IMG/VR virus record: IMGVR_UViG_3300036792_000198
Span: 1-64,000 of that record
DNA: 64,000 bases
Source: a virus
Strand: one strand, 5' to 3'
The notes under the pieces are model-generated. The model was given only the letters and a program-made list of their open reading frames with translations, was not told where the DNA came from and did not search any database. This document shows positions 19,362 through 22,300 of this stretch, one piece after another; the stretch's first letter is position 1, and the number at the start of each line of letters is the position of its first letter. Position numbers and translations under genes: made by a program.

Positions 19362-22300
19362 CCGGCTGGCGTGGGAGCCGCCGGCCGCTGCCACGCACGC
19401 TGCTCGCCTGACCTGGAGTCCCGGTGACATCGAGATCGCAGGTAGCTCCAGTAACCGCAAGCCGCCCGGTCAGGTGAACCTGACCTCCCGCCAGGTTAGC
19501 GAGCTGGGGTGGCGAGAAGAACCACGGGGCAAGGAAGGCCAGTGGCAGAAGTTTTACCACGCAAGCCCGCATGCGTTTGAAGTCGGCGACCTGATCACGC
19601 CGGGGCACGTCAAGGTCAGCGGGGTGGTCGGCCGTGCTGGCGTCCCCGATACCGACCCGGACAAGGTGTACTTCACCGACAGCCTTGATGGGGCGAAGAA
19701 ATTCAGCAGGAACACCAACGTCTACGAGGTGGAACCGACTGGCCCGATAGCGACAGACAAGCACTTCCCGGCAGCTCCGGGGGTGCCTGGGATGTACCCG
19801 GCGTACAAGGAAGGCGAGACTCCGACCGGGATGGCATACGAGTCGGAGCAGCCGCTTCGGGTGGTTCGCAAGCTGACCAACAGGACGATTAAGAACGACC
19901 CTAACCGGGTGATCGAGTACGGGCCCTCTGTGTCCTCGCCGTCACTGCCAGGGGCGCCGCATACCGCGTCTCTAGCTGGCACAATTACAGCTCAGCTGGA
20001 GCTAGCCCACTGGGAGGGGTGGCGCGATGAGCCGCGTGACCGGCACGGCCGGTGGACACGCGGCGCGGCGGCCGTCCTGGAAAGAGTCGTTGACCCGATC
20101 CGCGACGAGGGCGCCCGGGGCAACTCGCGGCCTGTCAGCGAGGAAGAGTTCCACAGGTACGCCGCTGAGGGCCGTGACCGGCTGCACGCCATCCAGGCGT
20201 CGGACTGGAGCACCAAGGGCCTCGACTCCGACTGGGCCGGCATCAAGGCGCGCACGTACGCCGAGGTGCAGAAGTCGTGGGGCGGCGCGACCGTTGACCC
20301 GCGTACCGGCGACCCGCTGCCCGACGGGGTCGACAAGTTCGCCATGTCGGTCAAGCCGACCGGGCTGGACACCACGTCGGTCAGCGAGCACGCCAGCGAG
20401 GCCGAGTTCAGCCAGGCAATGGACATCGCCCGGTCCAAGTACGGCAAGCAACTCGCCAAGGGCGGCTCCTACCTGGGCATCTTCCATGACGACGACCTGA
20501 ACCGGATCGACATCGACCCGGTGACGGTGCTCGACAACCTGCATGACGTGGAGACAATCGGCGCGTACACGCACGCGATCGGCGGCGCGTACAGGTTCAG
20601 CGACGGCAACGGGTACTGGCCGCCGCACGTCCCGAGCGGGGCAGCGATGAGCGCTGACGACGGGCACTGGGCCGGACCGGGTCAGTGGCACTCCCACGCG
20701 GTCGCCGTTCAGCAGCCGCACGACGAGCCGGAAGACACCGAAGACGGCAAGCCGGCGGTCGGCCTCAGCGCGAACGTCCATGTTGACCCGCAGGCACTGA
20801 AAGAGCCGGGCCTGCCCGTCCCGGACGACCCGGCGGCGGTTGCCATGTTCACCGCCCACCGCCTTGACCGCACCATGCACGAGCTGGCCCATGCGACCGA
20901 GCGTCACCAGGCGGCCCAGTCGGCTGGCGGGAAGCTGCGCGCCTACCACACCTCGAACATCGCCAGGCACCTGCAGAACTCGCTCGACACCATGCACAAC
21001 TTCGTCAGCAACCTGCGGGAGCACTACCCGGCCGAGGCCGCCGAGCTGGAACAGGTCAGGCAGGCCGTCGGCCTGGCGAAGTCGGTCAGCCCGGCGGCGA
21101 AGGCGGCCACCACCGCGCACCTGACCGAAACGGTGCTCCACGAGCTGACCCACGGGCAGCGGCACGCCCTCGCGATGATGAAAGACGACCCGGACGGCAA
21201 GGAGTGGAAGTTCGACTCCGACCACTGCGGCCGGCACCTCGACGGCGCCGTGGAGCACGCCGGGAAGCTGACAGAGCACTTCACCGACAACTACCCGGCG
21301 GTAGCGGAGTGGCTCGGTGAGCTGGGCGACATCGCTGAGCAGGCGGGGGAGGAACAGCACGCCCGGTACAGCGGCACCGGCAAGCAGCTCGCCGCTACGC
21401 TCGGCGATCAGCTCGAGCTTGCCTGGTCCGCTGCAGAAAAAGCGGAAGCACGTGCTAAGGCGCACGCCACCGCGTCAGCCACGGCCCGTCGCGACTACCT
21501 GCGTGACGAGAAGGGCCGGTTCGCCGAAGGCGAGGCAGCGAAGGCGGCCAGCGGGCGGGTCTACCGGGGCCAGGAACCTGGCAAGGGCGACAGGTTCTAC
21601 GTCATTGACGGTGACGACGTAGCCGAAGTGACGCGCGGCACGAAGCCGGGTACGGTGCACGTGGTACACGGCGACGGCACGTCCGAAGACATGCCCGCCG
21701 CGTTTGAGGCGCACCCAATGAGCCCCGGCAGCTTTGAGGACCCCACGTCCCGGCCCGTCGGCCCAGCCCCGAAGCAGGCTTTCCCGGAAGCCGCGTCCAG
21801 CGCCGCCGCGCAGCGCCTGATGTCCCAGTCCGCCGCATCAGTCCCCGGCATGTTCAGCAGGAACAGCCACCTGGACTGGGACGGCAAGCCGCCGACCGTG
21901 TTCCCGGATGCCAGCAACCGGGGGACGATCGCGGAAATCGACTGGAACGGGCACGTCCGCATCAACCAGTCAACCGCCAGCCACCTGGCTGAGGATCAGG
22001 CAGGCACCAGTCAGGTGTCTGACCCGTTCGCCTACTCAATACCGCTGCACGAGATGATCCACGCGGTTGTCCCCGCCGGGCAGTCCCGGCGTACCAACGG
22101 CGACATGAAGGCGTACCAGGACTACGGTCACGCGCAGGTTGAGGAAGGGTTCACCGAGCTGGGCACCGTTCAGCACGCGCACGAGTTCTTCGACGCCACA
22201 GGGGTGTCGGGCCGGGAGACACCACTTCTGAACGACACGGCTGACGCCGACGATGAAGCCACGGACAGCGGGCTGGAGCACTACACGATGGGCGAGTACG

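Follow-up and report, generated by a model that had tools for sequence, protein, structure and literature searches.

Here we describe an Arr-family ADP-ribosyltransferase (ART) domain encoded in positions 1 to 64,000 of the IMG/VR virus record IMGVR_UViG_3300036792_000198, a stretch of 64,000 nucleotides (nt) that is called the window throughout. The domain comprises residues 67-176 of a 1129-amino-acid (aa) protein, and residue numbers refer to that protein unless stated otherwise. A first-pass annotation, made from the DNA letters without database searches, had claimed an Arr-type domain at this place, and the claim is confirmed by a Pfam match, by profile matches to structures in the PDB, by Foldseek and by a conserved catalytic triad: these residues are a real Arr-family ART domain. 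On balance, we favor the explanation that it is an active ART cassette of a head cargo protein that would be delivered with the phage DNA and would modify a host target other than rifamycin.

An Arr-family catalytic core

The translation of 19549-19880 (+), KFYHASPHAFEVGDLITPGH...KVYFTDSLDGAKKF...NVYEVEPTGPIATDKHFPAAPG...QPLRVVRKLT, reproduces exactly the peptide blocks quoted in the first-pass annotation, and the His and Tyr codons that it had singled out lie where it placed them (Table 1). It had also suggested checks with the Arr-ms hidden Markov model and with a structural prediction. When the domain was excised, the Pfam Arr-ms model (PF12120) aligned with it over positions 1-97 of its 99 and scored 26 bits (26.0 and 25.7, E 1.1e-5), which is above the gathering cut-off of 25 bits. 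On the whole 1129-aa protein the same model gave 21 bits (E 3.8e-4, aa 68-176). As this score is borderline, we built profile evidence at the level of the family.

A word-indexed search with the domain alone returned one close relative, P0078 (112 aa). The whole-protein search contributed P0009, in which a 27%-identical Arr-like copy is placed after another module. A profile of these two sequences and the query matched solved structures in the PDB, with E values of 9.6e-10 for Arr-2 (9iba) and 1.2e-7 for Arr-ms (2hw2, 9iaf). An exhaustive HMMER scan of 1.84 billion representatives yielded 1125 proteins at E <= 1e-3, 208 of them at E <= 1e-10, and from these we picked relatives for a 53-sequence alignment with the query first. 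The profile of that alignment matched Arr-2 at 2.4e-18 and Arr-ms at 7.7e-17. Each of the 53 aligned relatives matches PF12120 individually (best E 2.3e-24), and since they were picked by likeness to the query profile, this unanimity signifies family coherence and not independence. Profiles were required for this relationship to be seen, as a single-sequence phmmer search of aa 1-250 against PDB sequences gave no match.

The predicted structure agrees with the profiles. The AlphaFold2 model of the domain has a predicted template modeling score (pTM) of 0.75 in addition to the predicted local distance difference test (pLDDT) value in Table 1, and only two loops are of low confidence. Foldseek of this model against the PDB gave significant matches only to 2hw2 (6.5e-6), 9iaf (6.9e-6) and 9iba (1.1e-4), all with probability 1.00 and template modeling (TM) scores of 0.52-0.57. 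Other ARTs, including ParT, LT/CT, pertussis toxin and KptA/Tpt1, were found at E > 0.2. In BFVD, the structural neighbors of the domain are uncharacterized Caudovirales proteins of 103-113 aa. When the domain is aligned to 2hw2 by HMMER, H70 falls on His19, Y107 on Tyr49 and D136 on Asp84, so that the full His/Tyr/Asp triad is kept. In Arr-ms these three residues (the H-Y-D motif) are needed for activity (PMC13246000; bioRxiv 10.1101/2025.02.20.639278). One deviation lies in the HG[ST] motif, which reads HAS in the query, with Gly replaced by Ala; Ala is also found at this position in 5 of the 53 relatives.

Membership in the family is nevertheless at the Pfam-family level only, and the domain is not a rifamycin-ART equivalog. 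The NCBIfam model for NAD(+)--rifampin ADP-ribosyltransferase (NF033144, an equivalog model of 131 positions with a cut-off of 130 bits) scored the domain at 22.4 bits over model positions 3-101 and the whole protein at 14.8 bits, both below the cut-off. Canonical Arr proteins recovered in the exhaustive search (P0193, P0196, P0201 and P0089) scored 139.5-318.4 bits over positions 2-131. Short relatives of the query scored 26-62 bits, with the alignment ending near position 100, and the stand-alone relatives of at most 200 aa (n=75) have a median of 7 aa after the core.

The part that the model does not find is the C-terminal alpha2 helix and tail. In Arr, the rifamycin cleft is bounded by the central sheet and by the helices alpha1 and alpha2 on its sides; L130 and L133 touch the drug, and a lid loop lies around Lys91 (bioRxiv 10.64898/2026.05.04.722716). 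In the query domain the C-terminal ~30 aa of Arr (the alpha2 helix and tail) are missing, and the core is instead followed by TNRTIKNDPNRVIEYGPSVSSPSLPGAPHTASLAG, a linker rich in Pro, Ser and Gly. The lid-loop equivalent of the query carries an insertion of ~19 aa, modeled with low confidence, that most relatives lack; in them this loop is short. We therefore named the group "mini-Arr", a term for an Arr-clade core whose elements on the acceptor side are changed or lost. The sequence evidence says that the domain is not a rifamycin enzyme. The first-pass annotation had offered two speculative roles, modification of a host macromolecule or small molecule at infection and protection of a rifamycin-exposed host; the low NF033144 score together with the lack of a C-terminal cleft helix favors modification of a host or other target at infection.

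Members of the mini-Arr group occur as stand-alone proteins of ~100 aa and as single or repeated modules in giant phage proteins. As a module, the domain turned up in dozens of giant proteins in the exhaustive search. Where it is repeated, it occurs 2-7 times in proteins as long as 3995 aa, and some copies in the multi-copy proteins are partial. In nine giant proteins that were scanned, Arr-ms matches are combined with NUDIX, GNAT and ParB_N domains and with ART-PolyVal, the last often in a region apart from the Arr-ms matches. Pattern scans of IMG/VR and GTDB were built on the 3-sequence alignment. Among IMG/VR viral contigs, mini-Arr was found in eight open frames of 117-1919 aa, five of which are 994-1919 aa long. 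The GTDB reference genomes gave almost only canonical stand-alone Arr with a C-terminal tail of 28-30 aa, so that PF12120 matches in cellular genomes and in viromes sample different subgroups. The GTDB loci (L009-L088) come from Brevibacterium, Klenkia, Gordonia, Spirosoma, Undibacterium, Listeria floridensis and many metagenome-assembled genomes.

An identity of the query domain with ART-PolyVal (PF18760) was considered and rejected, as no match was found at E <= 1; weak matches to this model occur in 6 of the 53 relatives (best E 3.4e-4). A separate observation concerns the metagenomic protein P0087 (446 aa), in which two mini-Arr domains surround a weak match to the 2H / RNA 2',3'-cyclic phosphodiesterase family (TIGR02258, E 1.7e-4, below the cut-off). 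This arrangement may hint at nucleotide or RNA-linked chemistry of mini-Arr.

Modules, junction tags and gene neighborhood

The domain lies at the N-terminal end of a multi-module protein, as seen from both the open reading frame (ORF) and the mapping of its modules. The GTG start of the 1129-aa ORF overlaps the upstream stop by 11 nt, and a metagenome gene call of the Joint Genome Institute (JGI) on a 126-kb contig (P0001) is identical to its product in length and sequence. BLAST of 77 homologues resolved a mosaic in which a tag, the Arr-like ART and a second tag come first, domain X and helical HExxH repeats follow, and an HExxH...E domain occupies the C-terminal part. The protein contains at least two unrelated effector-type domains in one large polypeptide, by which it can be called polyvalent.

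For domain X, present in nearly all homologues (Table 1), no sequence match was found in Pfam, PHROG or the PDB. The AlphaFold2 model of domain X is confidently folded (pLDDT 89.1, pTM 0.82), and Foldseek of that model found no match in the PDB (best E 0.11), so domain X may be an undescribed fold or family. Elsewhere it is joined to Mu and BeeE portals, MuF (PF04233), DUF7178, Zeta toxin and PemK, as well as to ParB nuclease, NUDIX, GNAT and 2',5'-ligase-like (2H) domains. Phage polyvalent proteins and MuF toxins draw on the same repertoire of domains (PMC5512222, PMC5576092). The C-terminal module is common to 8 homologues, and neither Pfam nor the PDB gave a match to it. Based on its gluzincin-like HExxH...E signature alone, it is a putative metallopeptidase, and it may be the processing peptidase of such proteins.

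The "shared tag motif" that the first-pass annotation had noticed before the domain is real, as judged by its enrichment over shuffled sequences. The pattern [LIV]-E-[LM]-[AGNV], a hydrophobic-Glu-Leu-small tag, occurs 13 times in six consecutive ORFs at 14684-26989 (+), 4067 aa in total. Shuffles contain it 1.0 +/- 1.0 times, with 0 of 2000 reaching 13, and the other large ORFs contain it once in 7035 aa. The tag often precedes W..E.R...G.W or GPKG[WY].HGW and sits at module boundaries. In two IMG/VR loci, L002 and L005, the same tag stands directly before FHGT (...LDLAFNPLEPRDKEGRFFHGT and ...VIELDWETEDRGPGGRWFHGT). In T4, packaged Alt and internal proteins carry a short motif at which the prohead protease processes them, and by analogy the tag may mark sites of processing, of capsid targeting, or of both. 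The span between the two tags flanking mini-Arr corresponds to a fragment of ~165 aa.

The portal gene, the 1129-aa gene, the major head protein gene and the tape measure gene are all on one strand, with the 1129-aa gene between portal and head protein (Table 1). The head-module setting given in the first-pass annotation thus holds. The window has a G+C content of ~70%, and its source is best explained as a high-GC, actinobacterial-type phage or prophage.

The 738-aa protein encoded immediately upstream matches DUF7178 (PF23802, E 3e-29) and contains a C3/exoenzyme-type ART of the R-S-E kind at nt 18558-19118 (PF03496, 31.4 bits against a cut-off of 23.4) with the motifs VFRG, FTSTS and GIGEYILP. 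Together with the Arr-like domain, this places two ART clades in adjacent, overlapping head-module genes. In the closest relative, P0006, the DUF7178 part (85% identity to aa 10-385 of the 738-aa protein) runs directly into the tag and domain X, which match aa 205-457 of the 1129-aa protein at 81% identity. DUF7178 followed by domain X in one polypeptide is also seen in many other homologues, whereas here the two are split over two overlapping ORFs with a +1 frame offset. P0006 joins DUF7178 directly to domain X, and the two ARTs of the window therefore resemble a cassette that was inserted: relative to the P0006-type architecture, the C3-like ART, the gene break and mini-Arr would together be an insertion. 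Along with the copy in P0009, which has a different position and only 27% identity, this architecture supports a cassette-like mobility of the effector modules.

Other genes were also noted in the window. Downstream, a mechanically called 484-aa ORF at 22383-23837 (+) shares 358 nt with the end of the 1129-aa gene; if translation began at the internal ATG at 22704 (MATTDAG...), which is the likelier start, only 37 nt would be shared. Upstream of the portal, 6552-7961 (-) encodes a C-5 cytosine DNA methyltransferase (PF00145, E 4e-32), probably an anti-restriction methylase. A scan of 10 further ORFs for an antidote matched only this C5 DNA methylase and DUF7694, with no macrodomain, ARH or other ADP-ribosylation-reversing gene among them.

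Table 1 Coordinates of the Arr-family domain, the modules of the 1129-aa protein and the surrounding genes in the window (SD, Shine-Dalgarno).
Feature	Position	Strand	Basis or remark
Arr-family ("mini-Arr") ART domain, aa 67-176	19549..19880	+	Pfam PF12120, PDB profile matches, AlphaFold2 model pLDDT 79.9, Foldseek
His70 (Arr-ms His19), NAD+-binding H of the H-Y-D motif	19558..19560	+	profile alignment; 53/53 relatives
Tyr107 (Arr-ms Tyr49)	19669..19671	+	Y in 43/53 relatives, F in 6
Asp136 (Arr-ms Asp84), catalytic acid	19756..19758	+	D in 47/53 relatives
Insertion of ~19 aa in the loop matching the Arr "lid" loop over the acceptor site	19765..19821	+	low pLDDT
Pro/Ser/Gly-rich linker where canonical Arr has the C-terminal alpha2 helix	19867..19974	+	6-residue predicted helix only
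1129-aa ORF, mosaic "polyvalent" head-module protein	19351..22740	+	GTG start, SD-like GAAGGTG upstream
Junction tag 1 (RQVSELGWREEPRGKEGQWQK), aa 47-67	19489..19551	+	directly before ART core
Junction tag 2 (AGTITAQLELAHWEGWRDEPRDRHGRWTRG...), aa 209-245	19975..20085	+	
Domain X, ~190 aa, aa 250-430, hub domain	20098..20640	+	common to 76/77 homologues
Helical region, aa 480-800, two HExxH motifs (HELAH, HELTH)	20878..21153	+	weak SprT-like Pfam match only
C-terminal module, aa 800-1116, invariant HExxH (HEMIH, 22048-22062)	21748..22698	+	EEGFTELG ~27 aa downstream
Mu-type portal, start of head module	9100..10500	+	PF06074 E 8.8e-27; PHROG portal
Upstream 738-aa gene: DUF7178 (aa 78-228) and C3/exoenzyme-type ART (aa 472-658)	17145..19361	+	overlaps 1129-aa gene
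Major head protein, end of head module	27654..28565	+	PHROG 1650 E 1e-67
Tape measure	36501..40895	+	

Candidate roles of the mini-Arr domain

The explanation that we favor on balance is an active H-Y-D ART cassette within a polyvalent head cargo protein that is delivered with the DNA and ADP-ribosylates a non-rifamycin host target. We infer the association with the virion from the position of the gene and from homologues that are fused to portal or MuF proteins. The 1129-aa protein would be incorporated into the procapsid and cut at the junction tags, probably either by the maturation protease or by the HExxH domain at its own C-terminus, and cleavage at both flanking tags would free the ~165-aa fragment with the Arr-like domain. 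This cargo would enter the host cell with the DNA, where the enzyme would use NAD+ to ADP-ribosylate its target and may work together with the C3-like ART that the neighboring gene encodes. Precedents are T4 Alt, which is packaged, the MuF toxins and the polyvalent proteins (PMC5512222, PMC5576092).

Several points weigh against this explanation. Packaging, cleavage, injection and the acceptor of the mini-Arr protein are all steps that we infer, and the PF12120 score on the whole protein is below the gathering cut-off. Either the HAS deviation or the low-confidence insertion in the lid loop could affect activity. The hub models MPTase-PolyVal, MuF, ArdC-N and DdrB-ParB have no Pfam match in the 1129-aa protein; homologues of domain X do carry MuF, portal and ParB fusions. 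A tblastn search with the 1129-aa protein against 50,697 deposited phage genomes gave no match, so that no characterized phage anchors the central inference, and the domain alone gave only marginal matches there, to PBC5 (E 0.3) and Streptomyces phage Frankenweenie (E 0.04). No ART clade other than Arr is known to modify a small molecule, which leaves room for a small-molecule acceptor.

Such an acceptor defines an unlikely alternative, in which the domain would be an anti-defense enzyme that ADP-ribosylates a hydroxyl of a diffusible anti-phage metabolite or of an immune signaling nucleotide at infection. Pfam, the PDB profiles and the fold all place the domain in the Arr clade, it is precisely on the acceptor side (lid loop and C-terminus) that it differs, and the two mini-Arr domains around the 2H match in P0087 hint at nucleotide chemistry. 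Phage Arr ARTs acting on diffusible compounds of antiviral immunity are also left open by PMC9503650. Against this, only half of the known small-molecule cleft is left without the alpha2 wall, the few enzyme copies that would be delivered per capsid fit catalytic modification of a macromolecular target better than bulk detoxification of a metabolite, and the 2H match is itself weak (E 1.7e-4). We consider it quite improbable that the full version of this idea holds, with mini-Arr as a virion-delivered small-molecule ART acting on the hydroxyl of an actinomycete anti-phage metabolite or immune nucleotide at DNA entry and the tags as a capsid-loading code. A loss of transferase activity, with the fold kept as a structural, NAD-binding or ADP-ribose-binding, or decoy domain, is also unlikely: all three catalytic residues are kept, no other columns of the family alignment are as conserved (H in 53/53, D in 47/53, Y or F in 49/53), and the core of the model has high pLDDT. 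Degeneracy would fit the Gly-to-Ala change in HG[ST], the long low-confidence insertion beside the catalytic Asp, the borderline Pfam score and the partial copies in some multi-copy giant proteins, but the Gly provides a backbone contact and Ala occurs there in 5 of 53 relatives too.

Rifamycin resistance, by lysogenic conversion or by protection of the infected host, would require a functional Arr for a rifamycin-exposed actinomycete, and we judge it very unlikely. It is the "straightforward" reading of phage Arr homologues in PMC9503650 and would account for the family match and the H-Y-D triad. However, the domain reaches 22.4 bits against the NF033144 cut-off of 130, where true Arr proteins reach 140-318, the C-terminal ~30 aa that hold alpha2 and the L130 and L133 contacts are replaced by the Pro/Ser/Gly-rich linker, and the lid loop differs. 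The domain is also part of a 1129-aa protein of the late structural module and not a separately expressed moron, and the canonical Arr proteins with 28-30-aa tails in the GTDB scan form a different population. Finally, a chance or compositional resemblance in a high-GC ORF, with no real Arr domain, would explain the whole-protein Pfam score of 21 bits against 25 and the empty single-sequence phmmer search. This is already refuted by the profile E of 2.4e-18 against Arr structures, the 1125 relatives, the PF12120 matches in 53 of 53 and the Foldseek probability of 1.00 for Arr only.

Arr has been studied almost wholly as a free-standing rifamycin-resistance enzyme. A large share of its nearest sequence space (~1100 relatives) consists instead of minimal domains without the rifamycin-cleft helix, which serve as exchangeable, often repeated cassettes in giant phage cargo proteins. 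If the explanation favored here is true, resistome surveys that count PF12120 matches would over-call rifamycin resistance in viromes, and an Arr-clade type would join the catalogue of phage-injected ADP-ribosylating effectors. Two ARTs in adjacent head genes with a clear junction motif would then offer a tractable system for Arr-like targets beyond rifamycin. Were the small-molecule alternative true, it would represent a new anti-defense strategy and a second class of small-molecule substrates for ADP-ribosylation after the rifamycins, and the hydrophobic-Glu-Leu tags would be a cleavage and targeting code that loads enzymes into capsids.

Comparison with known ADP-ribosyltransferase systems

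The query shares its fold, Pfam family and H-Y-D residues, in register, with Arr-ms and Arr-2 (2HW2, 9IAF, 9IBA; PF12120). The conserved blocks common to Arr and the query group are FxHGT...GD, VYxT, VY.VEPTG and P[LV]R[VI]V. Identity to Arr-ms and Arr-2 is only ~21%, however, the lid loop has another length and sequence, and the ~30-aa alpha2 helix and tail are missing. Arr is also a free-standing protein of 140-150 aa, whereas the query is one module of a 1129-aa phage structural-module protein. Arr-family ARTs have been described in Microbacterium and Gordonia phages and in Sinorhizobium phage PBC5, where they are read as modifying rifamycin-like antibiotics and conferring resistance on the host (PMC9503650). 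The query, by comparison, is one of the modules of a giant protein from the head cluster and has no rifamycin-cleft helix. The ART MicD, which acts on a ribosomally synthesized and post-translationally modified peptide (RiPP), was considered as a precedent for peptide-directed Arr-like enzymes and dropped, as the MicD paper draws no relation to Arr.

In its setting, the domain resembles ART-PolyVal (PF18760) of the Tox-ART-HYD2 clade (PMC5512222). Both are H-Y-D ARTs present in one to several copies per giant protein, with ParB, GNAT, NUDIX and metallopeptidase-like partners, a location among late or virion genes and a predicted delivery with the DNA. They differ in that the query has no PF18760 match and in that both types often occupy separate regions of giant proteins, so that mini-Arr is a second, Arr-clade type of ART in the same kind of protein.

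T4 Alt is likewise an ART encoded with head genes, and it is packaged, processed by a protease and injected to modify host proteins (PMC5512222); capsid targeting, trimming and injection are proposed here by analogy. Alt, however, belongs to the R-S-E clade and is a single-domain cargo, while here the R-S-E domain is in the adjacent 738-aa protein. The MuF polymorphic toxins of temperate phages, in which ARTs make up 14% of the toxin domains, are head-module proteins near the portal with exchangeable effector domains (PMC5576092). The query protein resembles them in this respect but has no detectable MuF domain, and its effector is N-terminal rather than C-terminal. Arr-type domains are not mentioned in the main text of the MuF toxin paper (PMC5576092).

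These comparisons narrow the suggestion in the first-pass annotation that a virion-associated fusion of this kind is undescribed. ARTs in polyvalent and MuF cargo (PMC5512222, PMC5576092) and Arr ARTs in actinophages (PMC9503650) were already known, while an Arr-clade module without the cleft helix in head-cluster giant proteins has apparently not been described. In the literature searched, what appears to be new is an Arr-clade domain that lacks the rifamycin-cleft helix and recurs as a repeated, exchangeable module of giant proteins encoded in phage head clusters.

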